Shown: positions 31,092 to 64,000, numbered from the stretch's first letter. The stretch: DNA of 64,000 nt from Methanosalsum zhilinae DSM 4017 (GCF_000217995.1 NC_015676.1:1345708-1409707); one strand, 5' to 3'. Translations and numbers: made by a program. The notes: generated from the letters alone by a model not told the origin.

Positions 31092-31246
31092 TACATCTCA
31101 TCCTCCATTTTGTTCTGTTTTGCATATCTTATGCAAATTTTTAGAGCCTCTGAACGGTTGATAGCTATTCCCATTTCCACTAATTTATCAAGATAATCCT
31201 TACTATCTTCTGAGACTCTTGCACTAACTGGATATGATCTACCCAT
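31091..31246 (-). CDS. Ribbon-helix-helix (CopG/Arc-like) small DNA-binding protein
   Basis: A beta-strand (RSYPVSARVSEDSKDYLDKL) is followed by helices (GIAINRSEALKICIRYAK). The likely start is the internal Met, which would make the ORF-track start at 31294 over-extended. The stop overlaps the start of the ESCRT-III-like gene. Confidence 0.45.
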   Translation of the reverse strand: MGRSYPVSARVSEDSKDYLDKLVEMGIAINRSEALKICIRYAKQNKMEDEM

Positions 31247-31342
31247 ATTTCTCACATTTAAATTTTTGTACCTACTGTATACAATGGAAAACATTATATA
31301 TAATACTTACTAAATAATTATATCAAGTATATTCATTTTAAG

Positions 31343-42800: not shown

Positions 42801-42898
42801 ATGAACTATACTTGAACGTACCTGGATATTGGTGGGTGCTTGTTATCGGAGATAGGAATGCTAAGAAGATATCAAAGCTGCTAAAGAGTCGGTGTTAG
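39854..42898 (+). CDS. TPR-like N-terminal domain fused to an SF2 helicase (ResIII/XPB-like DEVH)
   Basis: The helicase core has Walker A ATATGKT, DEVH (LLIVDEVHH), motif III SAT and motif VI QRLGRVLR. The N-terminal 450 aa are TPR-like helical repeats. Confidence 0.65.
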   Translation: MCNFKWNYGVGVLELNRDCDSGVNENEYRSQQQLKSHSTDKKSDAVNYSNEKEILQRIEDLLTDIIKKKTELQLDTFFNHLNDEHESYYNYGLGLFYLKQNDKKRSLKHLLFSYDQFKATDKYVSAAIACSKSIEQNPKNAELHRRMAEMHHQYGAYKKSLDSYLEAIEIYKQQREWTKIKNLCNIAESIDSNNPLICEMYGYAYKNTAGKKPEAISYYEKAKQIYLNCGQKKDAERCNKIMNEIMSSSRVQELDISYFTSYKRDNINTVAISDGIPVDEWINSNHTSSNVLKLAESDDMLLDYDIYKVDRSICLTLERTNGSYRQSYSKLEDFFLNLFFEMLSLRQESFNDSNKSFNYDEYYTVKSEFLEFRQIINQALGQAYMNQDSSSIGTIYTTPALSLLKKLLKSIDPDLNEVQLEYIEQAKHIAVPGSALFYLELFTQLKRKDIILKLQRYTSDYGYNEISGLIDIPVLLLKPWDHQLEAFKAWKNNRSRGIVEMATATGKTVVGFMAIENLVNTNQKNRKIIVRIIASSTAILNQWRRELIEKMGLMADPKLDYTSSIICKGAHINFQTVQLVMKRPESYACDLLIVDEVHHFAAESFRNALKVPTPRKMGLSATIEGKTKLDYLAKYLGPIIYRFDLESAIKADILPKFEWKLNVVYLSVTEEEDFEQISKQILSLFNQVSKDYATIRKISKSEITITNLYHFVRLTEIARYKKIGLPDEWKALQAKLQERRWIIHRSQPKINKAIELASYYLELKKKIILFVMDINTCDLVASELEKKYSNVYVAHSRMKDANRSILYFKKAASGILIGAKMLDEGIDIPDAEVGINVSSTESKLQLVQRLGRVLRKKENKIPIFHHFIGLPSTGSYVNYEDNIKFMEELSNIQDIALHLGVETEMNYETDQLLDVHNSAETMVHETNFGDKVGTLYLGNILKQFKEKEVHQTILRRLGLFDPDKKISDEEWRQIVREAFGIKDELYLNVPGYWWVLVIGDRNAKKISKLLKSRC

Positions 42899-49100: not shown

Positions 49101-49165
49101 ATATATAGAATGAAGTTTCCTTTAATTGTATTAAAACTACCAATTGGATCGTCCATTGAAATCAA
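43151..49165 (-). CDS. Giant 2004-aa SF2 helicase with a split helicase core and C-terminal DUF1998-like Cys clusters (DruE / DrmA-DrmB-like)
   Basis: The N-terminal half carries motif I TGTGSGKTEAF, motif Ia YPMNALVEDQ and motif II DELHLY. Helicase-C motifs V/VI (TTMEVGVDIG...QQRVGRAGRR) appear about 800 aa further downstream. The C-terminus has CxxC...CxxC clusters (CEHCG, CSNCG...CSNC, CKVCG...CPYC). Confidence 0.65.
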   Translation of the reverse strand: MISMDDPIGSFNTIKGNFILYIKTRFFSRFPSVEEERKKLLMSNDNVYKEPWVEVVQKYKSSGKTPNDLVIDDLPGMDEKLINDFKEITLCGLLGNFELYDHQIELLKSSLNGNNCIITTGTGSGKTEAFLLPIFAMLIKESKNWTRPKPPHPNYKNWWSNKKWIEECNNNQNKVSIRVPQREHENRDAALRALIIYPMNALVEDQLTRLRKALDSDNIKSLLEKTRNGNLFYFGRYNSSTPVPGHEYKYTSSGKRTPNKKKIEHLQKILRENEKQYHEALKASKKLHTFQSSDYDKIRYFWPSLNGAEMRSRWDMQEQPPDILVTNFSMLNVMMMREEDEQIFKKTRKWLEKDKNNIFHLVIDELHLYRGTSGAEISYLLKLFLRRLDLKPGHPQLRIISSSASIESDDEKSRKFLDDFFGKNCDFNIICGEKEQVTEIEGDKHLNPVPFTKLIESNRLPKEDEMIDFALFFDPDIDTNNGLNSLVKVMESPSLEMKKRLSHSCDLSQNVPAVPLLKFGYNLFGDHSEDVLEKATRGLFVARSLCNKYISNENTDGIRTKTSNLPTFRFHWFVRNIDGLWASTNIANYEDDRTVGKLYLKPQITDNDGFRVLAVYYCEHCGTLYYGGNRLKVSDTEFEILPTDPDIEGIPEKMSNPFLTQKTYFEHIIFWPTGNQILNDNAKKEKPHRSKNGRVAYSKWKRAHLNPQTGRVVIDRSTKNIAYGNNGFVSGYVFMLDNPEISELFSALPSICANCGIDYSKSSSETTSLMSPVRSFRTGFGKVSQLLAKEMFTQLPEDLRKTVIFSDSRQDAADLALDIESSHFSELFRDLFVKHIRNSTNSSYTFLNFIKNLNKDIRIVDITFDILYSMIESEKIENTCEITDFIRENHIKAKEIFEKYQTIEIFANESNEVYKELFKEKAELAKVDLSTLQKTSETNKIKLSSLIDRPPNSSEETCGVLIHDMIQLGINPAGPTIKDQYFKWNNEWKPWHELFDLNNLTWKKIYSPDFTAQKNRMYQSVRSQIARILFDRLYFNFESSGLGYPTVGFTEERLDEIANECGIDSLSLEQICSSIIRILGDQWRHENSNPQYRDYNIHSFESGLPKVKHYVTKVVKKYPRCVEESVFLDVLYRTIEEAGHNKAFLITGELWIKSSERNDPVWTCSNCGRIHLHFSAGVCSNCQSKLAKEPTAKCHDIWASNYLALPAIQGREPTRLHCEELTGQTDDQHGRQRLFRGFFLESDNDGYNEKINTIDMLSVTTTMEVGVDIGTLQSVMLANMPPERFNYQQRVGRAGRREHPFSIALTLCRGGRTHDDYYYENPKRIIIDPPPVPFITTGKDQLQIVKRLLSKECLKVAFYAIGIRWWHCQNKGDIHGEFGYAFLEDAENSTQSDLTWDKTGPKISSWLDKSNSMTLDIKKSIILALIDSNDPDIESELLDYLSDDLPDLITSAVNNQEFTSVSLAERLSEAGILPLYGLPSKQRLLYHGFKKKKAKVIDRDLEIAISDFAPGAQKTKDKAVHTAIGFTQPIKYSHKGGWNLVNPTAPPLPYRWCLSRCKVCGRVEVDNLPCKEKYVCPYCKANDEKLVQSIEIATPLAFRTNFSLGNEKKKFTTSSFKFKLSLADIRNPRFNERNGLNCETSFEPACHTWSINDNNGLLFEGATITTNKNRYSNDDLSDTQKINERRYLRFNNQWIAKEYIDQVADESDISNINFEKIGLASSKITDVLKIRPKKIIPGITLDPVKNITGPKANYMVFGGVRAALYSASFIIKSYLSNLLDIDTEEIELCNFQRAEIASNIYVGDITLSDRLQNGSGFASWINDNFEHILDDILHPKYASSFSSQLFSEKHANSCDSACYNCIMSYRNMHYHGLLDWRLGTSYLRVLQSSSYSCGLKEADYHYPEFTNIYGNDWLNFIYREAESYAFAFNGNVELRGKLPCIFTDSYSALVVHPLWDVNNPTGIFKEAINELKGDRDESPKFIDTFNLLRRPSWCHRTNENGNII

Positions 49166-49293: not shown

Positions 49294-51381
49294 ATGAAAC
49301 GCTCTATCCTGATATATAGAGAAGAAAATATTGAGATCTCAAATGCAGAAATAGAGTTAGTCAGACAAGTCTATCGAAATATTCGAAAGAATAGAAGAGC
49401 TGGGTTGATAATAGATTTTAGTGAAGATAACAATTTGTTGTTAAGGCTGATAGTTTCTGAACTTATGTATAAATATTATGAGTTAAAAACGCCATTTGCA
49501 TTTATTACAGATAGTACAGGAAAGCGATTTGTGAATGAATCCTTAAAAGAACTTAGAACTAAAAGAGATAGTTCTAGTCTTTATAGACTACTAATTCAAA
49601 ATCCTATCAAACAAAACAAAGTGTTCGACATAAACAGAGATACTAAAAATCTAAAAATATTTAACTATTTTATATTTTTTAGAGTTCCTAATATTTTTGA
49701 GTCTCTAAATGAATTTTATGGTCATAAAGTTTTGATTTTAACTAAAAGAGACAAAAATAAAGTTGGTGACAGAATAAAATCCATTGTGTCAGACTTAAAA
49801 CACAGTGGTTGGGCTTACCTGGAAGTAAGTGTTAAAAATAAAAATAAAAGACAGATTGAGAAAGATGATGTTAAAATTAGTTTAATAGATGATCACGATT
49901 TAAGCTCCTTGCTAAAAGAAATACTGGACGCACTTTCGAATTCTAATGGGTCAACTAATGATATAGAGGCACTAATAAATTTCTACTTTACTTTACCAAT
50001 AAAGCTCAAAAGCTATAACGAGTTGCAGTATGAACATACTCATAATAGCAATTTAGAACAATTGCCTAGTGAACAAATAGCAAAAAATAATAAATTGTGT
50101 CCACGAGACTCATTGATGTTTAACCTTCTATTTCAAAAAATGGAAAACCATCTATTAGATACAAATTTAAAATTTAATCATGTTCTACTAAGAGCAAAAG
50201 CTTTAAATGAGCTAGGTAAAACTGTTTCGCTTTTACTTCCCAATAGAAACTATTCAGAAATGTTTAGTGAGGTTATTGCAGATACGGACTATAAAAATAT
50301 AATTGAAGCCGACAATATTTGGTATCCTGAGCTGATATCCCGAGATGTATTGATGGATGAAATCATAATTGATACGATCATGATTCCTTTTGTTCCTTCT
50401 AATACCGTATTAGATGATGTGTTAACCATTGCAGAAGACGTGATTTTTGTACTTTATCCTGAAGAAGTTCTCATTCTGGAACATTTTACTAATATGTCTC
50501 AAGATGATAATATAATGCACGATTCAACAGAGTTCAATTCAAATCTTAAAATTAACCAAAGGGGCTGTAGTTCTACTAAAACTTCTAAATTTACAGATTT
50601 AAAAAAATATATGAATAACAACTTTAGAGATTTTAAAAGGGGTTTTCATTACACTTCATATAGTGGATTTTTGCGAAGTCTCGATGCTGATGACGACATT
50701 GAAGAAGTATCAGACTTGGATGATATGAATAGGTCAATTAATTATAAAATTATTTGTGCTGAAGGAAATATTATAGAATCTTCAAGCTTAGAACATGTTA
50801 TTCTTTTCGAAAAAGGTTTTTATTCCCCAATTTATGCTAGTAAACTAAAGAAGAACCAAGAGTTTATAGTTATTAGTTCAGAGACTAAATTAAAGTATCT
50901 AGAGAGAGAAATTGAAAGTCACCGTAATAATAGACTACTATCAAATATGGAATATGAAAGTTTGATAGGTTATATTGCAGAATGGAAAAGTGCACTTAAA
51001 TCTGTATTAAAAGAATATGAATTAAAGGAGATTTATAGTAAATTAAACCATGATGGTTATAGATATAACTATGTAACTATCAAAAACTGGTTTAAAGGAC
51101 TTGAAAATGACCCTAAAAAATCTGCAATAAACTCAATACTTAATACTAATACTAATATAGGTCCACGAGATGAAGAAACTATTAAAATTTTTGGGGAAAT
51201 TTTTGATTTACCTCAATTGATTCAAAACTATCGGTTTATTAGTGCTTCTATGAAACATTTTAGAACAAACAATCGCATTGCTGGAAGGAGAGCAATGAAA
51301 AATATAGTTATGGATCTCAAACAAGGAAACCTTGAGTTACCAAAACATAAAGTAAAAAAGATAACTTCTAAAGAACAATAA
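49294..51381 (+). CDS. Hypothetical 695-aa protein, divergent from the giant helicase
   Basis: This long, Lys/Asn-rich ORF has no recognisable catalytic motif. Its start is 129 bp from the start of the 2004-aa gene. Confidence 0.4.
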   Translation: MKRSILIYREENIEISNAEIELVRQVYRNIRKNRRAGLIIDFSEDNNLLLRLIVSELMYKYYELKTPFAFITDSTGKRFVNESLKELRTKRDSSSLYRLLIQNPIKQNKVFDINRDTKNLKIFNYFIFFRVPNIFESLNEFYGHKVLILTKRDKNKVGDRIKSIVSDLKHSGWAYLEVSVKNKNKRQIEKDDVKISLIDDHDLSSLLKEILDALSNSNGSTNDIEALINFYFTLPIKLKSYNELQYEHTHNSNLEQLPSEQIAKNNKLCPRDSLMFNLLFQKMENHLLDTNLKFNHVLLRAKALNELGKTVSLLLPNRNYSEMFSEVIADTDYKNIIEADNIWYPELISRDVLMDEIIIDTIMIPFVPSNTVLDDVLTIAEDVIFVLYPEEVLILEHFTNMSQDDNIMHDSTEFNSNLKINQRGCSSTKTSKFTDLKKYMNNNFRDFKRGFHYTSYSGFLRSLDADDDIEEVSDLDDMNRSINYKIICAEGNIIESSSLEHVILFEKGFYSPIYASKLKKNQEFIVISSETKLKYLEREIESHRNNRLLSNMEYESLIGYIAEWKSALKSVLKEYELKEIYSKLNHDGYRYNYVTIKNWFKGLENDPKKSAINSILNTNTNIGPRDEETIKIFGEIFDLPQLIQNYRFISASMKHFRTNNRIAGRRAMKNIVMDLKQGNLELPKHKVKKITSKEQ

Positions 51382-51388: not shown

Positions 51389-52389
51389 GGCTCTGTAGAA
51401 ATCTTATGTAAATAATAATTGTAAATGAGTTATACTTTTCGATATTATGTGTTAAATCTTACATTTACTTCCTTTACCTGGTTTCTGTACTTTCTTGACT
51501 TAATTTCTTCACCACATTTTCTTTTCAGAACGGAGAACATTGTTTCTACCAGGTTTCTCGAATGGTAGAGTTTCTCATCAAACTCTTCAACCATTTTCCT
51601 ACGGTATTTGCCATTTATTTTCTTTCTTTTCCTCTGTCTTACAGGGATAAGAGGACTTGAATTCATGTTCTCTCGTTTGAGAACATGAATTTGTTCAGAG
51701 TCATACCCTTTATCCAGGACATCGTATTCTGAATGACGAAGTCTATGGCATTGCTTCAGCAATGTTTGTGCGTGTTTCGTATCGTGTACAGGTTTACTTG
51801 AGACCTTAAACCCAGTAACAATAAATTTTTCAACATCAATTGCTATACTTGTTTTTAGATATGATCTCCTTTTCTTTCCAGTCCTCATTGAATAATTGTA
51901 ACTACAATGTCCACCCGTAAATCCACTTGAATCAATAGCAGTGAGATATATTCTTTCACCATGATAATAAAAGAGTTTTAGAGTTTGTTTCAATATGCTG
52001 TTAAAATATACTGATGGTATTCTACTCATGAATTTTTGTAATGTTGTAAAATGTGGTACCTGTTTTATTCCAAGTTTATTCTGTACTTTATCCATTAATT
52101 CAATGAGTTCAACGAAGTTTCTATAGTCCTCATTTAAGTATTCTTTTAGTAAAACCAGTGTCATTAACTGGTGCTGAGTATATTTTCACTTAGAATACTT
52201 ACTGCTATACAATGGAAGATGAGATATTCCTGAGACAGCAATGGCTGTATCATAAAGTTTAAGTATTTTCTTGACAAAAATATTCATCCCCCTGTTGTTT
52301 TTGTTTGTTTACCAAAAAAACACAGGGGACTTATCCTTTTTATAACATTAGGTTGAAGTGGTAATAGAAAATAGGATTTCTACATAGCC
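51389..52389. mobile_element. IS5/IS4-family insertion sequence (~1.0 kb) with 15-bp terminal inverted repeats
   Basis: The left end GGCTCTGTAGAAATC (51389-51403) and the right end GATTTCTACATAGCC (52375-52389) match as inverted repeats at 14 of 15 positions. Between them lies a DDE transposase ORF. Confidence 0.6.
51445..52164 (-). CDS. IS4/IS5-family DDE transposase
   Basis: The 239-aa product has DDE_Tnp_1-like motifs (AIDSSGF; DKGYDS; ETMFSVLKRK). Confidence 0.7.
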   Translation of the reverse strand: MTLVLLKEYLNEDYRNFVELIELMDKVQNKLGIKQVPHFTTLQKFMSRIPSVYFNSILKQTLKLFYYHGERIYLTAIDSSGFTGGHCSYNYSMRTGKKRRSYLKTSIAIDVEKFIVTGFKVSSKPVHDTKHAQTLLKQCHRLRHSEYDVLDKGYDSEQIHVLKRENMNSSPLIPVRQRKRKKINGKYRRKMVEEFDEKLYHSRNLVETMFSVLKRKCGEEIKSRKYRNQVKEVNVRFNT

Positions 52390-52568: not shown

Positions 52569-52979
52569 CTAAGAAAGCTTGCTCCTAGCTGCCTTATACT
52601 TCTCTATCCTGAGTTTATCTTCAGGTGTAGGGTCTGGAATCCGAGATAAAACCAGGTTATCTTCAATATCTGCTAGCTTCACCCTACAAGCGATATAATT
52701 TTGCGAAATTCTGTCAATGAACAGGCTATAATCTTCCCCTTCTTTTTTTGTTAGATGAGTAAGCACTTCAATCACTTCTTCTGAAAAGCCTTCATCTTTA
52801 AGTTCTTTAAACGTTATTGATGAATCTTCCACAACATCATGTAACACTGCACATATTCTCTCAATATCTGTATTCATCTTCATCATGATTCTTAGAGGAT
52901 GAAGGATGTAAGGCTCCCCGCCTTTATCTCTCTGCCCATAATGTGCTTTGCAAGCAATTAATATAGCCTTATTCAACAA
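52569..52979 (-). CDS. HD-domain protein resembling the RelA/SpoT (p)ppGpp hydrolase domain (small alarmone hydrolase-like)
   Basis: The N-terminal motif AHYGQRDKGGEPYILHPLRI matches the SpoT-hydrolase A-H-x-G-Q-x-R-K-x-G-x-PY-x-x-HP signature. An HD dyad (LHDVVED) and a downstream KLADIEDN follow. Confidence 0.6.
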   Translation of the reverse strand: MLNKAILIACKAHYGQRDKGGEPYILHPLRIMMKMNTDIERICAVLHDVVEDSSITFKELKDEGFSEEVIEVLTHLTKKEGEDYSLFIDRISQNYIACRVKLADIEDNLVLSRIPDPTPEDKLRIEKYKAARSKLS

Positions 52980-53159
52980 TACAGATTCCTCTTTGTAGTA
53001 AGTCTATTTTGCTTTCATTCTACTTATTATTGCCTTTAGTATTGTAACTCTATAGAAATTGTCATCTGAATAATAGTTGCAAACGAGTTATACTTTTTAG
53101 GTATTTAATGTCTTAGATTTAACTTCCTTTATCTTATTTATAAAAAATCTAATTAATTC

Positions 53160-53912
53160 TCACTTTAATTGCAAAAAAATTTCATCCAGACCATAAGTAA
53201 TTACATTTATTCGGTTTGACTTATTTGAGATGTAATCAACTGATATCATAGATAACTGAAATGGAAAAAGTGCAGGTGAACTTGTTATCATTTTAAAACA
53301 TCCTTTATTTTCTGGTATTGCATACAATACTGACTCTACAAGCAAAACAACAATTTCATCATCGTGTACGTTTAGTTGATTTGCTTTTACATAACATCCT
53401 TTACATTCTGAATCCTTTAAAATACCCCATTCTACGAGAGAACGAATCACATATCTGGCATACCTGCTAATAGTTTGTCTATCACCATATTGCTCTTTGA
53501 GTCTGTTGGTTATCTGATGTAGAGTAATCTGATCTTGAAGGTTCAAAAGTCTCCCCACCTGCAAAGATACGTTATACCAAAAAGGATAAGCTGCACAAAT
53601 CATTGCCCAGTGTATTGCAAGAGATTCAGAAGGATATTTGCGTAGCTGCTCTAAGGCAGAATCCCGTAAACCTAAAAGCTCAGGTTCAGGAGATACCCAG
53701 GTTTTCATTAGATTGGCAACGACAAATTTGCATGTGTTCTTACTTCGTTGATCTTCAGAACCACCGCATCTATAATGCATTAGATACTCATTAAACTCTG
53801 AACGTATTGATTTCTCATCCATTCCTGCAAGAAGCATACTAGCTGTTTTTTCCATCCATTCATAACGAATAACCTGCTTTATTCCAATGGAATCATACCT
53901 TTTACTCATCAA
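53160..53912 (-). CDS. Hypothetical protein, terminal gene of the defence operon (BrxA-like by position only)
   Basis: This 250-aa ORF overlaps the stop of the PglZ gene by 4 nt. It has no motif I can assign. Confidence 0.3.
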   Translation of the reverse strand: MMSKRYDSIGIKQVIRYEWMEKTASMLLAGMDEKSIRSEFNEYLMHYRCGGSEDQRSKNTCKFVVANLMKTWVSPEPELLGLRDSALEQLRKYPSESLAIHWAMICAAYPFWYNVSLQVGRLLNLQDQITLHQITNRLKEQYGDRQTISRYARYVIRSLVEWGILKDSECKGCYVKANQLNVHDDEIVVLLVESVLYAIPENKGCFKMITSSPALFPFQLSMISVDYISNKSNRINVITYGLDEIFLQLK

Positions 53913-55909
53913 CGACTCCTCTTTTCAAATTTTACCAAAGGAACAATTACTTCTTCCATTGAAATTCCACCGTGACCAACTATAGTTTCTCCTTCCTTGA
54001 CAAATGCATCGTCTCCCTCAGTTACCAACGGGAAATAACCAGGTGGTAAGCCTATAGGATTCCATTTTATTGCAAATGGTAATGTTTTGGCAACTGAATC
54101 TCTAAGTTCCAAAGTAGGATAAATCCTTGCTCTCTCGCCACGATTTTCGGCTATAGATCCTTCAAATGAACGTCCTTTTCCATTACATTCTATATTGCCA
54201 TGATCTGATGTTAACCATACTTGATAATTGTTATCTAAGAGGTATTCAATTAGAGAAAAAAGAAAACCTCCTTCGCACCATTGTTTAATCTGATTGTGCA
54301 TTCCAGAAGCACCGAGTTGCATACCATGCATAATCTTGTCGACCTTGTCAACGACCAAACCAATGACCTTTGTTTGGTTTAGATTGAAACTATCATCAAG
54401 AATCTCGCAAACATTACCATCTCCCAAGCTACGCTGATAAGCAATTTTCTGACGTGATACACCATTGTCTTCCCAGAACTGGCGCCACAGGTTTCCTTCA
54501 TTGTTTGTTGTGTTAATTGATTTTGGATAGGAAATAGGTGTTCTTCCCGAGAAAACTGCCTGTCTTGATACGGAAGTCAATGTAGGTATCCAGGCAAAAG
54601 TTGCTGATTCTTTCATAACCAAATTAGGATCTTGTTCATGGAGAACTTTTTTTATAGTGACCCACTGGTCAAGAGATAGACCATCAACAACAACAAGAGC
54701 CAAACTCATGTTTTTTTCAGATTCAAGTTCCCTAACCATTCGGCGAGGAACATGATGAAGCATTGCAGGATTTGTTGGAGGAAGATTAATCAGACCAGCA
54801 TAGCGTTCAAGCATCCAGTTTGTGAACTTATTGTTGACTAAAGTACTGATCTGCTTGAATCGTTCCAATTCATTAACTTGATTGGTTGTGTGAATAAGTG
54901 CTCTTAATTCTGCCCATTTCATTGCGAAGTCGATCCATTCTGAATAAAGTGACTCTGGAACGGGAATTTCATTTTCGATAATCTCAAGAAGACCATTAAT
55001 ACGAATGTTAGGATCATTGTCATTTGTTTCAGATACACCGCTTTTTATCCAGGGATTTGTTTCTATATTTGTGCCAGATTTTTGAACTGGAATGAGCTTG
55101 CCTTCAACAAAAAGATTGTCAATGTAAACACGGATGTCCTCATGATCAAATGGTAATGTGGTTGGTCCTCCATATTTCAGATTGTAAGCTGATGTTTCTT
55201 TAATGATATGGTTTCCGTGAGCCAGCACATCAAGGAATGGGGGCCAACGTTCTTGTAGAAACGCAAAAAAGGCTCCATCATCGGAGACGATAATTTCAAG
55301 TGGCCAATCATTAAAACGACTGTTACCTTTTAAGATTTGAACCAGTCGACCAGACAAGATTGGCGGTAGTTTAAGCTTATTGTAATGAATCCTAAGCAGT
55401 GTACGAAGTAGTTCAACATCGTTGGTGATAAGATATGGTACAATACCAAAAACATATTGGATTACAAAATCCTTGGTGTCATTATTACCTAGTTTACGTG
55501 GAGAATATTTGTTTTGAGCAGCAAATAATTCGTCCAGGAAACTGCTATCAAGTTTCTCAATTATAGAATAACTTAGATTGGGGAAAATATTACCAAGGGT
55601 AAATTTCAATATTCTTCCAGCTTTGAGGAGATCATAAGGCAGGGCATCCCACTGGGAGTTACACACACGAATCACAACTGTCTGTTTGGTCTGTTGTCCC
55701 TGGTCCCATAGAGTTCTGTATCCTGATTCATAGGCATACCTGAATTCAACAGAGTCTTTGAAATCAATAAGATCAAAACCACGGTTTTTGAGTTCAAGCG
55801 AGAGTTTTTCTTCGGTCAGCAGGTCATCAGGATCGATTACAATGATGACTTTGCTTATATTTGGCACAAACTCGTTAAGTATACTATCTCTCCAAGTACA
55901 TGGACTCAT
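53909..55909 (-). CDS. PglZ-domain protein (alkaline-phosphatase superfamily; BREX PglZ-like)
   Basis: The C-terminal domain has LALVVVDGLSLDQW and WLTSDHGN motifs (a PglZ-type TADHG-like metal-binding site). The gene is coupled to the SNF2 helicase gene. Confidence 0.55.
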   Translation of the reverse strand: MSPCTWRDSILNEFVPNISKVIIVIDPDDLLTEEKLSLELKNRGFDLIDFKDSVEFRYAYESGYRTLWDQGQQTKQTVVIRVCNSQWDALPYDLLKAGRILKFTLGNIFPNLSYSIIEKLDSSFLDELFAAQNKYSPRKLGNNDTKDFVIQYVFGIVPYLITNDVELLRTLLRIHYNKLKLPPILSGRLVQILKGNSRFNDWPLEIIVSDDGAFFAFLQERWPPFLDVLAHGNHIIKETSAYNLKYGGPTTLPFDHEDIRVYIDNLFVEGKLIPVQKSGTNIETNPWIKSGVSETNDNDPNIRINGLLEIIENEIPVPESLYSEWIDFAMKWAELRALIHTTNQVNELERFKQISTLVNNKFTNWMLERYAGLINLPPTNPAMLHHVPRRMVRELESEKNMSLALVVVDGLSLDQWVTIKKVLHEQDPNLVMKESATFAWIPTLTSVSRQAVFSGRTPISYPKSINTTNNEGNLWRQFWEDNGVSRQKIAYQRSLGDGNVCEILDDSFNLNQTKVIGLVVDKVDKIMHGMQLGASGMHNQIKQWCEGGFLFSLIEYLLDNNYQVWLTSDHGNIECNGKGRSFEGSIAENRGERARIYPTLELRDSVAKTLPFAIKWNPIGLPPGYFPLVTEGDDAFVKEGETIVGHGGISMEEVIVPLVKFEKRSR

Positions 55910-58836
55910 CAGTCTCTCCTTTGTATTTGCATTAGCAAAAGTGGTTTTATATCTGGTACTGTCTCTTTTGCAATTTCAAGTTCTTTTTTCCATACGTTCT
56001 CTTCGGAAATACATTTATCTAAACGATATTGACGAACCTCGGGGAGACCAAGACGTCCTATGGCTTTTCTCCGTGCTTCAAATGCATGATGACCTCTTAT
56101 TTCTTCATGTTCAATTGCAGAGCTATGTTCTTGCTTAAGGGTATTAAATAATGCCTGCCCAGCAGATTCAGCAGCATTGGTAACTTTATCATATGCATCA
56201 ATGGATGCTTTGTGGTCAAGAGAATGTAAAATCTTTAGCTCTGCTGTCTGCATGATGTCCCATATATGGCGGGCAGTTGGAAGGAATATATTCCCTTCGT
56301 CGGATACAAAGACACTGAGATATCGTCTCCTTATTTGTGGAATAGTCATAGTATGGTTGCTATTGTATGTGCCCGATACTATACGAATCTCGAACAATCC
56401 CCAAAAGCCAGATATCTTGGATGATAATTCATCTATAGATACGCATGGAATTGGCTGCCCGGAAGCAATCATTGGTAGGTTAAGTGCAAGTCCTCTTATC
56501 TTGTTATCTTCCAGATTAAGTAACACGACATCATCTTTAAGTTGCGATCGATGTGAATTGAAGGTGCAATTCATAGGAACTTTACTGTCAGGCCACATAA
56601 GGTCCCATGATTCTCTTTTACGTATTGCATGACCGCCGTGGGATTTAATATAACCTACTGTCATACGTTCGACCCAATAGGGAAGTGGATGTGATCGTAG
56701 ACGATCTGCAGTTTGCAGGTCAGGTTCTTCCGAAATACCAAAGATCGGTGATGATTCACGAATCTCATGGATCTCTTCTCTAATCTTGGATACTGTATTA
56801 TCAACTGAAGCTTCAACATTATCAGGATCAAGAATTGCAGAAGCAAAAATACCTTCGAATAATTCCCCAGCCTGAGCGGAGTCAAGTACATCTCCTGTTT
56901 TGTCGATTCCAAATTCATTAAGGATTATTGAAAGTTTCTGTTCGAGAACTTCTCGGACCCTGAATTCTATAGATTCCTGGAAAAGGAAGTTTATTGCTCT
57001 TACAACTTTGGCCTGACCGATACGATCAACACGACCTATACGTTGTTCCAGTCTCATTGGGTTCCATGGGATATCATAGTTTATGACAACATGACAGAAC
57101 TGAAGGTTCAGGCCTTCACCACCTGCATCAGTAGAAATGAGTACACGTACTTTGTCACAGAAATCATCCTGGGCCTTTTTTCGTTCGTCCATATCCATGA
57201 AGCCATTAAGTGTTACTACAGAAATACCTCGGGCTTCAAGGAATTCTTTAAGCATCTGTTGGGTTGGAACGAATTCGGTGAATATCAGTAATTTGAGGTC
57301 TGCTTCATTCTCTTCTGCCTGGAGCTGATAGATCCATTCTATCAGTGATTCTGCTTTGGCATCAGGTGCTTGCTGCTCACATTGGTAAGCCGTTTCAAGA
57401 AGGTTTTCCACCTGGATCCTTTCGTTCTGCATGGCAGAAATACGGGATTTAAGAAGCTCATCGAGCAGTTCCTGTCCATCCATCTCATAAAGTTCATCAA
57501 CTTCATCACCAGAATCTGTAATCTCTTCCAGACGCTGGGAAGTTCGAATTTCTATGTCTTTGAGAACTTCAAGCCTACGTTCCAGTGTAGTGCGAATGGC
57601 CCTTGTACTTGAAACCACAAGTCTCTGCATGAGTATCATCAGAAAGCCAATGTGCTGCTTCTTTTCCCTTAGTGCCTGATTGTACCCTTCACGGACGTAT
57701 TTTGTTACTTCCTCATAGAGCATTTGCTGTGATCTGTGTCGTTCTTCCCATGTAACAGGTGCCATCTTTGTAACACGTGGTTTGAATAGTGGATTGCCAT
57801 CTCCATCAACTGCTCTACGTTTCTCTGTACGGATCACATAAGCTGCCACTCGTTCACGAGTAACGCTATCCATGTCAGGAAAGGTTTTGTCATCCAACAA
57901 GCTCATCAAACGATGAAATGCATCACTTTTACCCTGATGTGGGGTTGCTGAAAGCAATAGAAGATATGGTGCAGCCTCTGCAAGTCCTCTTCCAAGCTTG
58001 TATCTGGCAACCTGATCCGTACTGCCCCCTAGCCTGTGTGATTCATCAACCACGACCATATCCCACCCGGCAGTGATCAGATCTTCAAATCTGGAGCGGT
58101 TATACTCATCAATACGTTCCTGACTCCATCCCCTGCGTTTATCCATGGGCTTGACAGAGTCAAGGGATACTATCACCTGATCGAACATCCTCCATGGATT
58201 TGCATGCTGCAGTTCATCAGGTTCATCCAGGAACCGGAGCTTAGTACCCTGTGCCCAATAGCGAGAATGGTTACCACTGATTATTCTTTTTATCGTTGCA
58301 AGGTCTTCGCCGAAAACAAGCTGGAAATCCTCGTTGAAGTGCGTATGCATCTCGCTGACCCACTGAGTAGCCAGACCCTTCGGCGCAACAACCAGAATAC
58401 GACGAACCAAACCTCGTAATTTGAGCTCACGCATGATAAGTCCTGCTTCAATTGTCTTCCCCAGACCAACCTCATCAGCTAGCAGATAACGTACCTTATC
58501 TCCAGAAACAGCTCTTGAGAGAACACGTATCTGATGCGGAAGCGGAATGACATTTGATTCCATCGGAGCAAGAAGCACAGGCCCATCCGAATCATGTGAA
58601 CCGCCCTCCAGCACTTCAGCTACCTTTGCTGCTGCAGCAACATACGTAATTCGGTTTGCTTCGATCTCCGGCTGAATCTCTGCAGTCAATGGTCGCAGTG
58701 CTGACTGCGGAACCCTGACCACAGTATCCTGATTTGGAAGCCAGATACGGTAAACTATGTTTCCCCACAGGTTTTGTTCTTCGATTACTTTGCAGGGTGA
58801 GTTGTGGATGGTGGAGTATTGCCATTCTTTAATCAT
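55909..58836 (-). CDS. SNF2-family helicase (COG0553-type; BrxHII/DrmD-like)
   Basis: The product has SNF2_N motifs (LLADEVGLGKTIEAG; VVDESHRLGG), a helicase-C region (LISTDAGGEGLNLQ...QRIGRVDRIGQ) and a C-terminal extension. Confidence 0.8.
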   Translation of the reverse strand: MIKEWQYSTIHNSPCKVIEEQNLWGNIVYRIWLPNQDTVVRVPQSALRPLTAEIQPEIEANRITYVAAAAKVAEVLEGGSHDSDGPVLLAPMESNVIPLPHQIRVLSRAVSGDKVRYLLADEVGLGKTIEAGLIMRELKLRGLVRRILVVAPKGLATQWVSEMHTHFNEDFQLVFGEDLATIKRIISGNHSRYWAQGTKLRFLDEPDELQHANPWRMFDQVIVSLDSVKPMDKRRGWSQERIDEYNRSRFEDLITAGWDMVVVDESHRLGGSTDQVARYKLGRGLAEAAPYLLLLSATPHQGKSDAFHRLMSLLDDKTFPDMDSVTRERVAAYVIRTEKRRAVDGDGNPLFKPRVTKMAPVTWEERHRSQQMLYEEVTKYVREGYNQALREKKQHIGFLMILMQRLVVSSTRAIRTTLERRLEVLKDIEIRTSQRLEEITDSGDEVDELYEMDGQELLDELLKSRISAMQNERIQVENLLETAYQCEQQAPDAKAESLIEWIYQLQAEENEADLKLLIFTEFVPTQQMLKEFLEARGISVVTLNGFMDMDERKKAQDDFCDKVRVLISTDAGGEGLNLQFCHVVINYDIPWNPMRLEQRIGRVDRIGQAKVVRAINFLFQESIEFRVREVLEQKLSIILNEFGIDKTGDVLDSAQAGELFEGIFASAILDPDNVEASVDNTVSKIREEIHEIRESSPIFGISEEPDLQTADRLRSHPLPYWVERMTVGYIKSHGGHAIRKRESWDLMWPDSKVPMNCTFNSHRSQLKDDVVLLNLEDNKIRGLALNLPMIASGQPIPCVSIDELSSKISGFWGLFEIRIVSGTYNSNHTMTIPQIRRRYLSVFVSDEGNIFLPTARHIWDIMQTAELKILHSLDHKASIDAYDKVTNAAESAGQALFNTLKQEHSSAIEHEEIRGHHAFEARRKAIGRLGLPEVRQYRLDKCISEENVWKKELEIAKETVPDIKPLLLMQIQRRD

Positions 58837-60688
58837 TTAGCAACCCCATCTCCTTTAAAAAACGAGAAGGTTGCTTATGCCATCCAAAATATTCGTTTGC
58901 ATAACTCAAATACAGAGATTTTGATGCACGAGTAATTGCTACAAAACAGTTTCTTCTCTCTTCTTCTATTGATTTATTTCCACTTCTAATTGCAAAATAA
59001 GTTGGGAACTGCTCTTCAGCTAATCCTATAATAAAAACATGATCGAACTCCATTCCTTTTGCAGAGTGAACTGTTTGTAATCGGACGCAATCTTTTCCAA
59101 TTGACTTCAACTTGGGCGTTAAATCCATTTCTTGGAGAAATACGTGGAGTCCAACATTTCCTTCATAAGTATCCTCAATGTCCTGTGCAATTCTCGTCCA
59201 ATTTTCTTTATCGTCTTTGTAATCAGGAAATAAATCATCTTTTTCATCGTCAGTATTCAAGTAATCGAAATGATTAATGTATATCTCAATAAATTTTTGA
59301 AATTGGATTGTATCACAAAGATAACTGATTCCGGCATTACAAACTGGATTCAATATTTCACTTTGAGAAGCAGTATCAAAAAAAGCACGAAGCAAAGAAC
59401 TACCTTCAACATGTGCTTTTGCAGAGATGTCTTCAGCTGATAGTACTAAACCGTTTATGTCAGTTGCTGATGCACAAAGCTTGTTGAGAACACTACGAGA
59501 GTTAGCTGCATTGGCCAATTTAAGGCAAAAATACATTGTCAGTAGAATAGGACTTGAAAAATCTTGATTCTTGCTGACGATTTCTGCATTTATACTATGT
59601 TCATTTAAGTACTTATTTGCAGCAGTAAGTAGTTTATTGCTTCTTGCTATCAATAAACATTTATCTCTACTTTTTAGAGGAATTACGTTAATCTCATCAA
59701 CTAAACCTGAAAGTTCATGGTCAAAATTTTCATATGATGTTAATTTAACTGTACCACTTTCATCACTAAACGGAATTCCAGGTTTTTTTGTATGGATTCT
59801 ATAGGAATTATGTTCAATGAGCTTATTTGCTATTTCTACGATTTCCTTTTGGCAACGATAATTATATGGAAGTTGCAGGACTTCTATATTGTAATCGCTT
59901 TTAAGAGATTCCAATCTTTTTGGATCAGCTCCATTCCACTGGAAGATAATCTGGTCTTCATCTGCGACAATAAAAAGATTTGCATTTTCGGTGGGAGCTA
60001 ACAATTTGAGTATTAAATATTGAGCTAGATTTGTATCTTGGAATTCATCTACACAGATATACTTGTACACTGTTCTTAGTTGTCGAGCAATGCGTGGTTT
60101 CGTTTCAAGAAGTTGTCTTGTGAAGTAGAGCATAGACCCAAAATCTAGTTGATTTTCCTTTGAAAGTGCTTGAATGTATTGATTAAATATTGTTTGTAAA
60201 TCGTAACACTCAGTTTGATTTTCAGGAGTGAAATACTTTGGTAGTTCCTCAACAGATATCCCGTGAGTAAACATGGTATCTATTCTGCTTAATATATCTT
60301 CAGGATTATCAACATCAAGTTCCTTAAGGATGGCAATTCGATCCTTTTCATCAGTTATCACTGAAAAGTCCGGCTTAAGGTTGAGATGACTCCCATGTTG
60401 ACGCAATAAATCAGTACAAAATGCATGAAAGGTACGCAGCTGAACTCTATTATCCATATTCCCAAGCAGCATATTTATCCGGTCTTTCATTTCCTTGGCT
60501 GCTTTCACAGTGAATGTTAGACCAAGGATACGGAAATTTTCATCGGGACTGTTTTTTATAATGTTTGCGATTCTCATCGTCAAAACAGCAGTTTTACCAG
60601 ATCCCGGTCCGGCAAGTACGAGAAGGGATTTCTCTCCCCATTCAACTGCTTGGCGTTGACTTTCATTTAGCTGAAAAACTGATATCAT
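58829..60688 (-). CDS. UvrD/PcrA/Rep-like SF1 helicase (GajB-like)
   Basis: Motif I reads LNESQRQAV...LVLAGPGSGKT, followed by UvrD-type Q-motif and helicase motifs. The start overlaps the upstream OLD-family gene by 4 nt. Confidence 0.7.
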   Translation of the reverse strand: MISVFQLNESQRQAVEWGEKSLLVLAGPGSGKTAVLTMRIANIIKNSPDENFRILGLTFTVKAAKEMKDRINMLLGNMDNRVQLRTFHAFCTDLLRQHGSHLNLKPDFSVITDEKDRIAILKELDVDNPEDILSRIDTMFTHGISVEELPKYFTPENQTECYDLQTIFNQYIQALSKENQLDFGSMLYFTRQLLETKPRIARQLRTVYKYICVDEFQDTNLAQYLILKLLAPTENANLFIVADEDQIIFQWNGADPKRLESLKSDYNIEVLQLPYNYRCQKEIVEIANKLIEHNSYRIHTKKPGIPFSDESGTVKLTSYENFDHELSGLVDEINVIPLKSRDKCLLIARSNKLLTAANKYLNEHSINAEIVSKNQDFSSPILLTMYFCLKLANAANSRSVLNKLCASATDINGLVLSAEDISAKAHVEGSSLLRAFFDTASQSEILNPVCNAGISYLCDTIQFQKFIEIYINHFDYLNTDDEKDDLFPDYKDDKENWTRIAQDIEDTYEGNVGLHVFLQEMDLTPKLKSIGKDCVRLQTVHSAKGMEFDHVFIIGLAEEQFPTYFAIRSGNKSIEEERRNCFVAITRASKSLYLSYANEYFGWHKQPSRFLKEMGLLND

Positions 60689-62517
60689 TGGGCACCTCCA
60701 GAAATACCATTGACTTTTTCAAGAATCTGTTTTATTTCTTCTGGGACACCATCTGCTCCTCTATCTTTAATTAACATAATTGCATTAAGTGAAGCAGCAG
60801 GCTTTGAAAAGTGTCTTTTGAGGCAAGCATATACCTGATTCCAATATTCAGGAGTTTCCTCTTCTGCTGTAATTTCAGGATTAGATCTGTCTTCTAGTTT
60901 TCTGGCTACATTCAAAGCTTGACCTGGTTTCTCGGGAAAAGTTTCTTTTATTTCTTCTAATACTTGTTCCCAAGTAGCAGTTGGATAAGTAGTAGTATTA
61001 GTACTTATTCCATCTAAATAAGGATCTCCGTAACCTGCAACACAAAGAAGAACATCCATGTTTGACTCAGAAAGTTTTGTAATATATGTAGACTCGTCTC
61101 TTCCATTCAACAAATTCTTTGCACTTCTAATATACTTATCTCCGGCTTGATCATTATCTGCTAACAAATGCCAATCAATACCAAGGGAATCTGCCACTTT
61201 GATAAATAAACCAGGACCACCTGCTTGACTATATTCGACAATTCGCAGACCACATTGATGTATATCAATTTCTAATATTTGAGCACATTCGGACACTACA
61301 GAAACGTCAGTCTCACCCTCAACAAGTAACCATTTTTTAGCAAATAGTAATTCTCCACGATTTCTTCTAACTTGGTGATTAAATTTCCTCAACTCTTCAG
61401 GAGTCAAGCAATCCTTTTGAATTATATTGCATTCGCATACATTTGACATTCTATTCATTCTTCTAAGATTTTCAACAGGCACCTCCGACAGAATGTCACC
61501 TGAATGAGTTGCAATAATCTTTTGCCCTGGCAAATTACCTAAAATAGGCCAAATTGCACGGATTGCATTGGGGTGCAAGTGTGCTTCTGGTTCTTCAATC
61601 GCAATTATTGGCTCTGCTAAACGATTTACATCGACTTTTATCCGGGTTTTTAAATATGCACTAAAAAGAAGAAGCACGCAAAGACTCTGAGTACCTTCTC
61701 CATGGTTATAGATAGGAACTTTTGTATTAGTGACGGTAGGAATGTTTACATCTGTGTATCGTATTGTTTTATAAAAATCAGCTGGTTTAGGATCTATGCT
61801 AACATTATTAGCATCTCCTACAGAAATAAGAGTTGAAAGCTGCTTTACTTCGGTAACAACGTCCTGAAATGACAAGTGAGAACCAACAATTTTTTTATTT
61901 ACTTCTTCTAGTTCAGATTCTAATTCGATTCTGGTATCATCATTTAGGCTTTTACTTTTTAAAAAAGCTGACCAAAATGTAGCTTGGCTACGAAATTCTT
62001 CTTTTGCATCTCTAAGTGCAGAAAGATAATAAAAAGGACGTAGTTTTCTTATTTCTTTAAGAAAAGACTGCTTACCTACCATTTCATTACCAGCATCGTC
62101 TAAAAAGCAATAACTTTGTTTTAATTCACCATCTTCTTCATCAAACCAACCACTTATACGCAATTTAATCTTTGAGTAATCATCACCAACAATTACCTCG
62201 TTTAATGATTGTACGATTTTATCGTTCCATTGATGTTCTTCTGTTTCCTCAAATGTAAATGTGAGATTTATTGGTAAAAACTGCTCTTTCTTCTTTATTT
62301 CATTGTCACGGTAAAAATCATATTCTGAAAAATTAAAAGTTCGATCAGACTTTATTAAATCCATACCTATGCGTAATGCCTCTAGTACAGAAGTTTTTCC
62401 GCTGTTATTTTCCCCAATCAGAACGGTAATGTCATGATCAAATTCAATCTCTAATGAACTAACACCACGAAAATTTTCAATCTGGACTTTTGTTAGGAAC
62501 ATCTCATTCCCCTCCAA
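60685..62517 (-). CDS. OLD-family ATPase-TOPRIM nuclease (GajA-like)
   Basis: The N-terminal ABC-type ATPase reads FRGVSSLEIEF...VLIGENNSGKTSVLEAL. The C-terminal TOPRIM reads LLVEGETD. The 610-aa size and the adjacent UvrD-like helicase are typical of Gabija. Confidence 0.75.
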   Translation of the reverse strand: MEGNEMFLTKVQIENFRGVSSLEIEFDHDITVLIGENNSGKTSVLEALRIGMDLIKSDRTFNFSEYDFYRDNEIKKKEQFLPINLTFTFEETEEHQWNDKIVQSLNEVIVGDDYSKIKLRISGWFDEEDGELKQSYCFLDDAGNEMVGKQSFLKEIRKLRPFYYLSALRDAKEEFRSQATFWSAFLKSKSLNDDTRIELESELEEVNKKIVGSHLSFQDVVTEVKQLSTLISVGDANNVSIDPKPADFYKTIRYTDVNIPTVTNTKVPIYNHGEGTQSLCVLLLFSAYLKTRIKVDVNRLAEPIIAIEEPEAHLHPNAIRAIWPILGNLPGQKIIATHSGDILSEVPVENLRRMNRMSNVCECNIIQKDCLTPEELRKFNHQVRRNRGELLFAKKWLLVEGETDVSVVSECAQILEIDIHQCGLRIVEYSQAGGPGLFIKVADSLGIDWHLLADNDQAGDKYIRSAKNLLNGRDESTYITKLSESNMDVLLCVAGYGDPYLDGISTNTTTYPTATWEQVLEEIKETFPEKPGQALNVARKLEDRSNPEITAEEETPEYWNQVYACLKRHFSKPAASLNAIMLIKDRGADGVPEEIKQILEKVNGISGGAQ

Positions 62518-63979
62518 CCCTTGTCACAGCCTGATCATACCACATCAGCAACTTTGGATCCTCTTCCAGAACCTTGTTCGGAATCAGATCAGCCACCTTA
62601 ATTATCGTAGAATAATCCCTCTCCTGCCATGCCTTCTTAAAACCAGCCTGTACAGCCTCCATCCTGAATACTTTGAGCTTCTTAGTAGACTGCCTGTACT
62701 CCTCGAACTCTTTCAGCAGTGACTTCTCACGCAGTTTCTCCAGGTCCCCTGCCTTGTTGGGATCTGGTACATACCATCTATCCTTAGCCTTAGCCACCAA
62801 TCCCGGATCATTCTTCTGCAGGTTACGCATCTCCGGCCAATTCGTAGAAAGATAGCCATGTATCTGGCTTGGCACGTCACCAATACCATTGTAGCTGAGG
62901 AAGTTCTGGTTCAGCAGTTCCCTAAGGTCCAGTTGCTCTTCGTTCTTGCTCCAGCCACCAAGCTCCTGCATGAACTGCGGATTAATATCCTGGAATGTCT
63001 GTGGTTTTACCTTGAGAAGCTGACGTAACCACTGAATTGCAGAAGCCTCGTCAGACACGAAAAGTTTTGTTTGGATGAAGTGTCCGGATGTCAGTTTCTT
63101 ACGATCATACTCTGCAGCCTGCTCTGGTAAGAAGTACATACCATCACGCTCAATGAACCGCTGCCCAAGTCCTATCTGAAAATCCTGACTAGAAATTGGT
63201 ACGGGATATCCTTTGCGGACGTAGTAGGCTACCATCTGATCGAAAAGAATACGCGAATCACGTTCGGGAATTAATTGCATTAAAGCTCCCTGGTATTTGG
63301 TGACTGGAAGATATTCCAAATGAGTACGGATAAAGTCCCATACACCGTCTTCAGTTTCTGCTTCATTCTGGAAGCGTTGCTCGAAGCCGCCATTGGGTTT
63401 GTAAGCAGAGATAACAAGATCTTGTTTAACGGCTGTTGGTGTAGTAACCGCTTTAAAACTTCTCTGTTGTTTATCTAAAGAGGAAACGTTTGCAGCAATG
63501 AATCCAGCTTCTAATAATGCTGTTTGAATACTATTCCAAACAGAAGCATTTGTATTAGAGAATTCAACTGTCATCCAGCGTCCAGGTTTAAGTGCCTTAT
63601 ATTTTTCCCTGAAACATTCCGTCATCAGATGACGATAATCATCTAAGCTCTTGCCTTGAGATTTGTTTTCTATAGCTTCAACTTCATTTTTTGTTTTTAA
63701 TCTTAGCCACTCTTCCCAAAGAGAACTCAACTCAGAATAATTTAGATTAGAACCAAATGGAGGATCTGTAAAAACATAATCAACTTGTCCACAGAAGGAA
63801 TCGGTACTTGATTTTGTACTTATCAACGTAGATAATTCAACATCTTTAAAAGCTAAACACAGTTTCTTCAGTTTATTGTAATAAGCAACAAATACATTAG
63901 ATTCTGAAATTTGTGATCCAATATAAAAAGTCCCACTCAAAGGATTGTAAGGGAATGAATACTCCAGGTCTATAACGGT
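62504..63979 (-). CDS. N6-adenine DNA methyltransferase, C-terminal portion (HsdM/gamma-class-like motif IV DPPFG); the N-terminal motifs are not in this frame
   Basis: Motif IV VDYVFTDPPFGSN is followed by LKPGRWMTVEFSN (motif V/VI-like), then a long C-terminal region. The reading frame is closed by an in-frame TAA at 63980-63982 and contains no ATG upstream of the motif. The adjacent minus-strand frame stays open to the window edge. Confidence 0.55.
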   Translation of the reverse strand, partial: TVIDLEYSFPYNPLSGTFYIGSQISESNVFVAYYNKLKKLCLAFKDVELSTLISTKSSTDSFCGQVDYVFTDPPFGSNLNYSELSSLWEEWLRLKTKNEVEAIENKSQGKSLDDYRHLMTECFREKYKALKPGRWMTVEFSNTNASVWNSIQTALLEAGFIAANVSSLDKQQRSFKAVTTPTAVKQDLVISAYKPNGGFEQRFQNEAETEDGVWDFIRTHLEYLPVTKYQGALMQLIPERDSRILFDQMVAYYVRKGYPVPISSQDFQIGLGQRFIERDGMYFLPEQAAEYDRKKLTSGHFIQTKLFVSDEASAIQWLRQLLKVKPQTFQDINPQFMQELGGWSKNEEQLDLRELLNQNFLSYNGIGDVPSQIHGYLSTNWPEMRNLQKNDPGLVAKAKDRWYVPDPNKAGDLEKLREKSLLKEFEEYRQSTKKLKVFRMEAVQAGFKKAWQERDYSTIIKVADLIPNKVLEEDPKLLMWYDQAVTRVGGE

Positions 63980-64000
63980 TTAACTTACTTATATTAATTA

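Follow-up and report, generated by a model that had tools for sequence, protein, structure and literature searches.

Positions 53160-64000 on the minus strand of a 64,000-nucleotide (nt) segment of the Methanosalsum zhilinae DSM 4017 genome, the whole of which is referred to here as the window, are filled by closely packed genes, among them a methylase gene, an SNF2-family helicase gene and, between these two, genes for an OLD-type nuclease and a UvrD-like helicase. This raises the question of which defence system the locus encodes, and whether the nuclease-helicase pair is a working part of that system or an independent module lodged within it. The analysis is computational throughout, gene families being assigned by Pfam, PADLOC and NCBIfam profiles. 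The genes form the promoter-distal portion of a type 3 bacteriophage exclusion (BREX) operon; its full order is brxF-brxC-pglXI-[gajA-gajB]-brxHII-pglZ-brxA, and the two and a half genes at its start fall outside the window. Judged by its sequence the central pair belongs to Gabija (class 2 OLD) and appears to be exchangeable cargo, not a BREX component. We think it likely that the operon holds two co-transcribed defence layers, a BREX-3 system and an independent Gabija module occupying an exchangeable slot between pglXI and brxHII.

The BREX-3 genes and the gajA-gajB pair

Six consecutive open reading frames (ORFs) occupy the minus strand from 53160 to 63979 (Table 1), just as the original prediction, a reading of the sequence alone, had placed them, and their domain content also agrees with it. 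In transcription order PADLOC identifies them as pglXI (3' part only), gajA, gajB, brxHII, pglZ and brxA, and its scores for the individual genes support the proposed distal type 3 BREX order pglXI-brxHII-pglZ-brxA. The assignment of PglZ, chosen beforehand with the identity of the upstream genes as the points on which this reading should stand or fall, held: the protein scores 125 bits on Pfam PF08665 (cut-off 25) and 916.5 bits on NCBIfam NF033449 (BREX_PglZ_3; cut-off 250), and its RefSeq name is 'BREX-3 system phosphatase PglZ'. The anticipated SNF2 helicase has the Pfam domains SNF2-rel_dom and Helicase_C with intact GLGKT, DESH, SATP and QRIGRVDRIGQ motifs, and its alignment with the PADLOC BrxHII profile spans positions 4-931 of 933. 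The product of the last gene matches PADLOC BrxA over positions 1-248 of 251 but finds no match in NCBIfam or in Pfam, including the DUF1819 family proposed as a check; the terminal position of brxA is common to all related loci. Three of the proteins match M. zhilinae DSM 4017 records exactly (PglZ, AEH61151; BrxHII, AEH61152; GajB, AEH61153). An HsdM-like methylase, as the first ORF had been described, is ruled out, the sole Pfam signal being a partial N6_N4 methylase match (PF01555) and the PADLOC call PglXI.

The brxF and brxC genes expected past 64 kb are present in the same strain. A query with BrxC of Methanolobus bombayensis retrieves a 1246-amino-acid (aa) M. zhilinae protein (91% identical) on contigs L095 and L096, which derive from the same two read sets as the contigs L001 and L092 that cover the locus. 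On L095 the order is brxF (538-1014; 158 aa; NCBIfam NF033453, 195.7 bits against a cut-off of 50), brxC and then the first 84 codons of a pglXI. The M. bombayensis locus (L002), which has 88% nucleotide identity with the window over 10.6 kb, reads brxF-brxC-pglXI-gajA-gajB-brxHII-pglZ-brxA, with a BrxC of 2061 bits on the PADLOC model and an intact PglXI of 931 aa, and the same eight-gene order is seen in a Methanolobus metagenome-assembled genome (MAG). PglZ, BrxHII, a BrxA-like terminal gene, BrxC, BrxF and a gene for the PF01555-type N6-adenine methyltransferase PglXI, which together mark BREX type 3, were each found; an intact PglXI reading frame, needed for methylation, was not, owing to a +1 insertion, described below together with the in-frame stops that precede the 3' ORF. 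BrxHII is unusually well conserved, being about 70% identical from Methanosarcina to Nitrosomonas, Lentisphaeria and Actinomycetota.

The genes are tightly coupled. Overlaps measure 4 nt (ATGA) between gajA and gajB, 8 nt between gajB and brxHII, 1 nt (TGATG) between brxHII and pglZ, and between pglZ and brxA 1 nt from the ATG start or 4 nt from the TTG start. Overlaps of 1-14 nt had been claimed for every junction and four are indeed of 1-8 nt, but pglXI and gajA are separated by a 1-nt spacer (TGA-G-ATG) when gajA starts at the ATG at 62502, which is the start in the gene call on L001 and also where the profile matches begin; the upstream TTG that would give a 14-nt overlap with pglXI is unsupported by either. 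A GGAGG-like motif precedes each of these starts. The run of six T residues that follows brxA is possibly an archaeal oligo-T terminator at the operon end, and the next ORF on this strand begins approximately 180 nt further on.

The original prediction had noted the OLD/UvrD pair, and its domains are confirmed by Pfam, but it had not recognized the pair as Gabija or as exchangeable cargo. In accordance with the definition of Gabija (PMC10568477), a gene for an ABC ATPase-TOPRIM protein (GajA) is followed directly by an overlapping helicase gene. GajA matches Pfam DUF2813 (179 bits), AAA_15 (117 bits) and OLD-like_TOPRIM (48 bits), and has intact motifs (Walker A GENNSGKT, EEPEAHLH, and the TOPRIM motifs LLVEGETD, with its E, and DNDQAG, the DxD). 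GajB matches UvrD-helicase (223 bits) and UvrD_C (121 bits), with GSGKT and DEFQD motifs present. The closest solved structure to GajA is the class 1 protein TsOLD (6P74; E-value, 2e-11), and those closest to GajB are PcrA and UvrD (E-values, 1e-63 to 1e-62), Bacillus cereus GajB being matched at 4e-14.

Could the SNF2 helicase and the methylase instead represent DrmD and DrmMI of a BREX/DISARM (defence island system associated with restriction-modification) hybrid, acting with a DrmA/B-like giant helicase encoded 6 kb from them, as the original prediction had offered as an alternative? BREX-3 and DISARM have related SNF2 helicases, and the protein does score 333 bits on the PADLOC DrmD model and 368 bits on NCBIfam DISARM_DrmD, but the latter value falls short of the curated cut-off of 610, and both are far lower than the BrxHII score. 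The methylase is PglXI, and the 2004-aa giant helicase is DruE at 1724 bits, with DrmA models reaching 33-39 bits. Although a 695-aa ORF has a sub-threshold DrmE_C match (24.3 bits against 27), none of the ORFs scanned from 23.5 to 64 kb matched DrmB (DUF1998) or DrmC (PLD), and a divergently transcribed gene, an insertion sequence (IS) transposase and an HD-domain ORF separate DruE from the BREX genes. DISARM class 1 membership is rejected on DrmD and on DrmA, DrmB and DrmC alike, and a hybrid of this kind is extremely improbable.

Table 1. Features of the BREX-3 locus and its surroundings, in window coordinates; scores are in bits, those of named profiles from PADLOC
Feature	Coordinates	Strand	ORF	Description	Profile and score
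pglXI, 5'-ward piece	63958..64000	-		frame offset from downstream ORF; gene runs past window edge	
+1 frameshift site in pglXI	63958..63959	-		window edge compared with L008, L079 and L050, nucleotide and protein	
pglXI, 3' part	62504..63957	-	62504-63940/63979	catalytic DPPF motif, C-terminal region, stop codon 62504-62506	PDLC02541, 793
gajA	60685..62502	-	60685-62517	class 2 OLD nuclease (ABC ATPase + TOPRIM), 605 aa from ATG	PDLC00094, 911
gajB	58829..60688	-	58829-60688	UvrD/PcrA/Rep-like SF1 helicase, 619 aa	PDLC00114, 908
brxHII	55909..58836	-	55909-58836	SNF2-family helicase, 975 aa	PDLC02500, 1591
pglZ	53909..55909	-	53909-55909	BREX-3 phosphatase/nuclease-family protein, 666 aa	PDLC02558, 1079
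brxA	53160..53909	-	53160-53912	249 aa from ATG, or 250 aa from TTG at 53912	PDLC02444, 395
T6 run	53142..53147	-		13 nt past brxA stop codon, read from sequence	
Transposase-related short repeats	53048-53134; 36912-37041				
HD_4 ORF	52569-52979	-		small, ppGpp-hydrolase-like HD	
Transposase gene	51445-52164	-		DDE_Tnp_1	
Divergent neighbour of DruE	49294-51381	+		695 aa	
DruE	43151-49165	-		2004-aa helicase	DruE2/DruE4, 1724
PbeA-like helicase	39854-42898	+		1014 aa, convergent to DruE	200
Low-GC cluster	26606-32644				
IetA-like AAA ATPase	29295-30476			within the low-GC cluster	150

Exchange of cargo between pglXI and brxHII

A metagenome scan with a BrxHII alignment yielded 80 loci, taxonomically broad and 66-87% identical in BrxHII, of which 65 were usable in that they include both the 3' end of pglXI and the start of brxHII; together with a few genomes this is a sample and not a census. 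The gap between the two genes is occupied by co-oriented ORFs in all 65, and is 1072-7481 nt long (median 2804). Clustering and annotation distinguish at least 14 kinds of cargo, counted over 73 loci when eight GajA-derived loci (among L002-L010) are added to the 65. They include an NsnB/HEC-03B-like OLD-type ATPase with DUF3696 and an unannotated 349-aa partner (17 loci, and a further one where it is stacked with Ppl and Schlafen), Ppl (six alone, three with a Schlafen-HATPase gene), PDC-S19 (DUF3644; five), PARIS-like AriA and AriB (five alone, one stacked with Thoeris), HEC-03 (ATPase, HEC-03A and RNA ligase; five), IetA-IetS of Ietswaart (four, plus L031, where IetS only was called), a 625-aa OLD-type protein (four), an unannotated protein of about 500 aa (four), a PD-T7-3-like protein of 505-514 aa (three), Thoeris ThsA and ThsB (two, one alone and one in the stack with the PARIS-like pair) and AbiU/AIPR (one). 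Gabija is found in three of the 65 BrxHII-centred loci and in 11 of the 73 overall.

On the BrxHII tree the cargo types are scattered and the Gabija-bearing loci are polyphyletic, which rules out Gabija as a monophyletic component co-diverging with BREX-3. Cargo turnover is fast, since pairs of loci that are 94-98% identical at the nucleotide level in brxC and in brxHII-pglZ-brxA hold unrelated cargo; in such pairs homology ends at the pglXI stop codon and returns at the brxHII start codon, and the middle of pglXI, its specificity region, is divergent too. L012, which is among the closest backbone relatives of the window (BrxHII 87% identical), has Thoeris where the window has Gabija. In Methanosarcina lacustris Z-7289 (L093) the slot is empty, with a pglXI-brxHII junction of 44 nt, and the slot is not obligatory. 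From these comparisons it would appear that recombination within the conserved flanking sequences replaces the cargo rapidly and that the slot behaves as a hotspot that is nearly always occupied. A second and less used slot lies between brxC and pglXI, where 12 of 58 loci have a filling of more than 1 kb, often a Schlafen/HATPase_c_4 gene, and three loci have two pglXI 3' ends.

We note some further features of these loci. Two pglXI genes or two pglXI 3' ends are present in L003 (741-9999) and also in L013, L061 and L087; in L003, a Methanolobus MAG, two full pglXI paralogues flank a gene for a 1212-aa RecD-like protein (PDC-S68), which is upstream of gajAB. The doubling fits the insertion of cassettes through recombination inside pglXI. 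Two recurrent cargo families match nothing in Pfam or PADLOC, namely the 349-aa partner of the NsnB-like ATPase (18 loci; L043 8934-9983 and relatives) and a family of 495-509 aa (four loci; L079 8403-9905 and relatives), to which a 495-aa ORF lacking a Pfam match in the same slot of Nitrosomonas ureae (L094) is possibly akin. By position both families are candidate new defence genes, and the slot could serve as a guilt-by-position trap for others. In N. ureae a Hachiman pair (HamA and a DEAD helicase; L094 15676-19606) directly follows brxA, and an ArdA anti-restriction gene is found upstream of the BREX-3 locus.

Also bearing on the status of the window GajA are its closest relatives, drawn from 5.8 billion proteins. 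Of the five with a genomic record, four lie between pglXI and brxHII (L004, L005/L006 and L008-L010) or, in L011, between pglXI and pglZ; a sixth relative (P0014) is without a genomic record, and two Methanolobus loci are two further cases of BREX-3-embedded gajAB. A stand-alone gajAB pair (L007), whose GajA is 75% identical to that of L005, is nested inside the BREX-embedded GajA/GajB clade. In L011 (10001-15867) gajA is accompanied by an N-terminally shortened gajB (522 aa), brxHII is missing and pglZ comes directly next, so that this locus is either a deletion derivative or one in which a UvrD-like helicase stands in for BrxHII.

As judged from the gene families, in the BREX-3 layer PglXI would set an N6-adenine mark on host DNA, and BrxC, BrxF, BrxA, BrxHII and PglZ would block incoming DNA that is unmarked. 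Gabija would act alone as a nucleotide-gated nuclease-helicase complex, triggered when infection depletes nucleoside triphosphates (NTPs) or makes DNA ends, and would provide back-up when BREX is evaded or inhibited; both layers would be transcribed together from the one operon. The rival to independence is that the slot module, here GajAB, is a plug-in effector of BREX-3. The latter would then be a sensor and marking chassis with a built-in and almost always filled slot for interchangeable effectors wired to it, an arrangement we regard as doubtful. The trigger would come from BREX components (for example PglZ nicks or BrxHII translocation) or from BREX inhibition, which seems similarly questionable. 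Were this true, the occupant could fire on BREX inhibition or act on DNA engaged by BrxHII or PglZ, and BREX-3 would not be a host for unrelated hitch-hikers. The occupied slot of all 65 metagenomic loci, the constant co-orientation of the cargo and its coupling to brxHII here by an 8-nt overlap speak for such wiring, as do the closest relatives of GajA, which are mostly BREX-3-embedded, the retention of gajAB without brxHII in L011, and the proposal that embedded nucleases are auxiliary or back-up effectors acting after PglZ nicking (PMC12839542).

Independence is favoured over such a hybrid because the alternative cargos (Thoeris, Ietswaart, PARIS-like, AbiU and Gabija) are mechanistically unrelated systems, known or proposed to stand alone, because they turn over fast with no co-phylogeny with BrxHII, because the slot of M. 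lacustris is empty, and because the stand-alone gajAB pair nests in the embedded clade. It is also favoured because BxaP, from the same slot, protects E. coli in the absence of BREX (PMC10799925) and because BrxU acts independently of its BREX (PMC12707154). The case of L011 is weakened by the degraded appearance of that locus, its gajB being shortened. Overall an integrated effector is rather unlikely.

Several points nevertheless count against an independent Gabija layer within a complete BREX-3 operon, or against its proposed working. We know of no worked-out mechanism for type 3 BREX, which has been termed 'less explored' (PMC12839542). The near-universal filling of the slot, the translational coupling of gajB and brxHII and the BREX-embedded GajA relatives (at 55-63% identity, four of the five with a genomic record lie in BREX-3 loci) also fit functional coupling. 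That L095 adjoins the window, and with it brxF and brxC, is something we infer. Published work describes GajA nicking as inhibited by NTPs and assigns to GajB the detection of DNA ends and the hydrolysis of (d)ATP and (d)GTP (PMC8136825; 10.1101/2023.05.02.539174; see also PMC10568477). Such biochemistry, with the supramolecular GajA:GajB complex, is known only for the B. cereus pair, and ATP-gated nicking by the window GajA would be an extrapolation by analogy, since this protein is far from the characterized one: B. cereus GajA was not reached from it by phmmer at E<1e-3.

The interrupted pglXI and the surroundings of the operon

The original prediction had treated the methylase as a complete gene of 478 aa. 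This ORF aligns with positions 437-918 of the 919-position PglXI profile and shares 78% identity with M. bombayensis PglXI (residues 449-931), and three stop codons lie upstream of it in its own frame. The last 43 nt of the window encode, in another frame (frame 2), INISKLNRYRPGV, which matches PglXI of L008 and L010 (INISKLNRYRPGVSFP) with 87.5% identity over 16 aa (E-value, 4e-5) and also that of L078 and L079; the matched part just precedes the SFPYNPLSGT segment of the homologues. Where these have GTN TCA TTC CC the window reads GGA GTA T TCA TTC CCT, with one additional base. On these alignments pglXI is a gene of about 930 codons extending past the window edge, and a single-base insertion interrupts it near codon 437, the 478-aa ORF being its 3' part. 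Programmed frameshifting or phase variation is not favoured, because no slippery heptamer, homopolymer or repeat tract was found at the break.

To the reservations listed above must be added that the frameshift is known from one assembly and could be an assembly error, because the independent read-set contigs, L001 and L092, both end before reaching it, at about 62612, 110 nt before gajA. The assemblies of both read sets of the strain break at the same places, namely near 62612, about 250 nt into pglXI, and at 52196 beside the IS. The breaks at both ends of pglXI suggest a repeat, with most of the gene sharing exact k-mers with a second copy in the genome, possibly another pglXI of the kind found in L003; no such copy is present within the window. 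If the insertion is real, the frameshifted pglXI would mean that the methylation-dependent BREX layer is probably off and that Gabija is the layer still working, a natural case of an inactive methylation layer with an intact embedded one.

The frameshift could alternatively be the mark of decay, the segment being part of an inactivated island without current defence function. The DDE transposase gene just downstream of the operon and the IS-like sequence upstream of brxF on L095 would fit, but the other five genes are full-length, have intact motifs and are colinear with those of relatives over 10.6 kb, with no frameshifts, and the window agrees at 100% identity with a read-set contig of Illumina type. 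Loss of the methylase would not disable Gabija, and such loss alone is a common and reversible off-switch of BREX-like systems. We consider a decaying remnant quite improbable, and an operon with two defence layers, one of them perhaps switched off, remains our preferred reading.

IS-family copies may bracket the BREX-3 locus, because related sequence is found on both sides: L095 1-326, upstream of brxF, is 76% similar to the transposase sequence and in the same orientation. Short repeats related to the transposase occur at two places in the window (Table 1). Between brxA and the transposase gene is the small HD_4 ORF (26.2 bits, against a Pfam cut-off of 27.2), which is not kept at the brxA-flanking position in the Methanolobus relatives. 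No other Druantia gene adjoins the DruE gene on its strand, the sub-threshold DrmE_C signal is the only match of its divergent neighbour, and this locus may be a solitary or atypical Druantia-like system. A PbeA-like gene near BREX-3 recurs in two genera, in the M. zhilinae window, where it is convergent to DruE, and in M. bombayensis, where brxF is immediately preceded by genes for a PbeA-like helicase of 742 aa and a Cas4-like nuclease (L002 40-2818). Further away, in the low-GC (28-35%) stretch of the window, two ORFs (399 and 472 aa) without Pfam or PADLOC match come after the IetA-like ATPase gene on its strand, and next are a Snf7-like 190-aa ORF and a gene for an SPFH/Band7 protein with a zinc ribbon; this group may be an uncharacterized defence or membrane-remodelling cluster.

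Comparison with known systems

The locus itself is ordinary, in that PglZ is already named as a BREX-3 protein in RefSeq and Gabija-type modules in BREX were reported in 2024-2026; no literature linking M. zhilinae with BREX was found. PMC10799925 and PMC12839542 both give the definition of the canonical type 3 BREX with its six genes, and the second counts the type in 919 taxa, 28 of them archaea. The locus of M. lacustris Z-7289 has the same six gene families in the same order, with a BrxHII 71% identical to that of M. zhilinae and a PglZ that also passes the BREX-3 model. In M. zhilinae, by contrast, the 3.7-kb gajA-gajB module splits pglXI from brxHII and pglXI is frameshifted, whereas M. 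lacustris alone of the two has a 602-aa gene between brxC and pglXI.

The Gabija system of B. cereus VD045 shares with the M. zhilinae pair its two genes, for an ABC ATPase-TOPRIM protein and then an SF1 UvrD-like helicase. The two are distant, BcGajA lying outside the phmmer threshold given above and BcGajB being matched over part of the protein at an E-value of 4e-14. The M. zhilinae helicase is PcrA/UvrD-like and has 619 aa as opposed to about 494 aa in BcGajB, and unlike the B. cereus system the M. zhilinae pair is archaeal and embedded in the operon of another system.

A second defence module inside a restriction-modification-like operon is likewise seen in the embedded BREX effectors, in BrxU of type 1 BREX, which acts independently of that system (PMC12707154), and in PrrC (EcoprrI). 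OLD-ABC/TOPRIM proteins (with PARIS and Gabija named), GmrSD, Schlafen and others have been described as embedded in BREX as auxiliary or back-up effectors (NAR 2026, PMC12839542). The main text of that paper was not found to describe a fixed pglXI-brxHII slot, its near-universal occupancy or exchange between near-identical backbones, nor non-nuclease cargo such as Thoeris, Ietswaart and AbiU, its supplementary tables having been searched for a few terms.

A precedent is BxaP (ORF376), which in a type 3 BREX is inserted after PglXI and before BrxHII (Nat Commun 2024, PMC10799925) and defends E. coli lacking BREX. It shares with the M. zhilinae locus the exact slot and the presence of a non-BREX defence gene inside the operon, and differs in that the M. 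zhilinae cargo is a two-gene Gabija module; the PD-T7-3-like cargo of L053, L060 and L090 appears BxaP-like. The BxaP insertion was regarded as rare (0.29% of BREX-bearing MAGs) and surprising, and was not presented as a single option among many for a nearly always filled slot. What the present comparison adds is a picture of the pglXI-brxHII junction as a nearly always occupied recombination hotspot, at which near-identical backbones hold Gabija, Thoeris, PARIS-like, Ietswaart, AbiU, Ppl, HEC-03, PDC-S19, BxaP-like or unknown genes, and within which the M. zhilinae locus is an archaeal (methanogen) example of layered defence.

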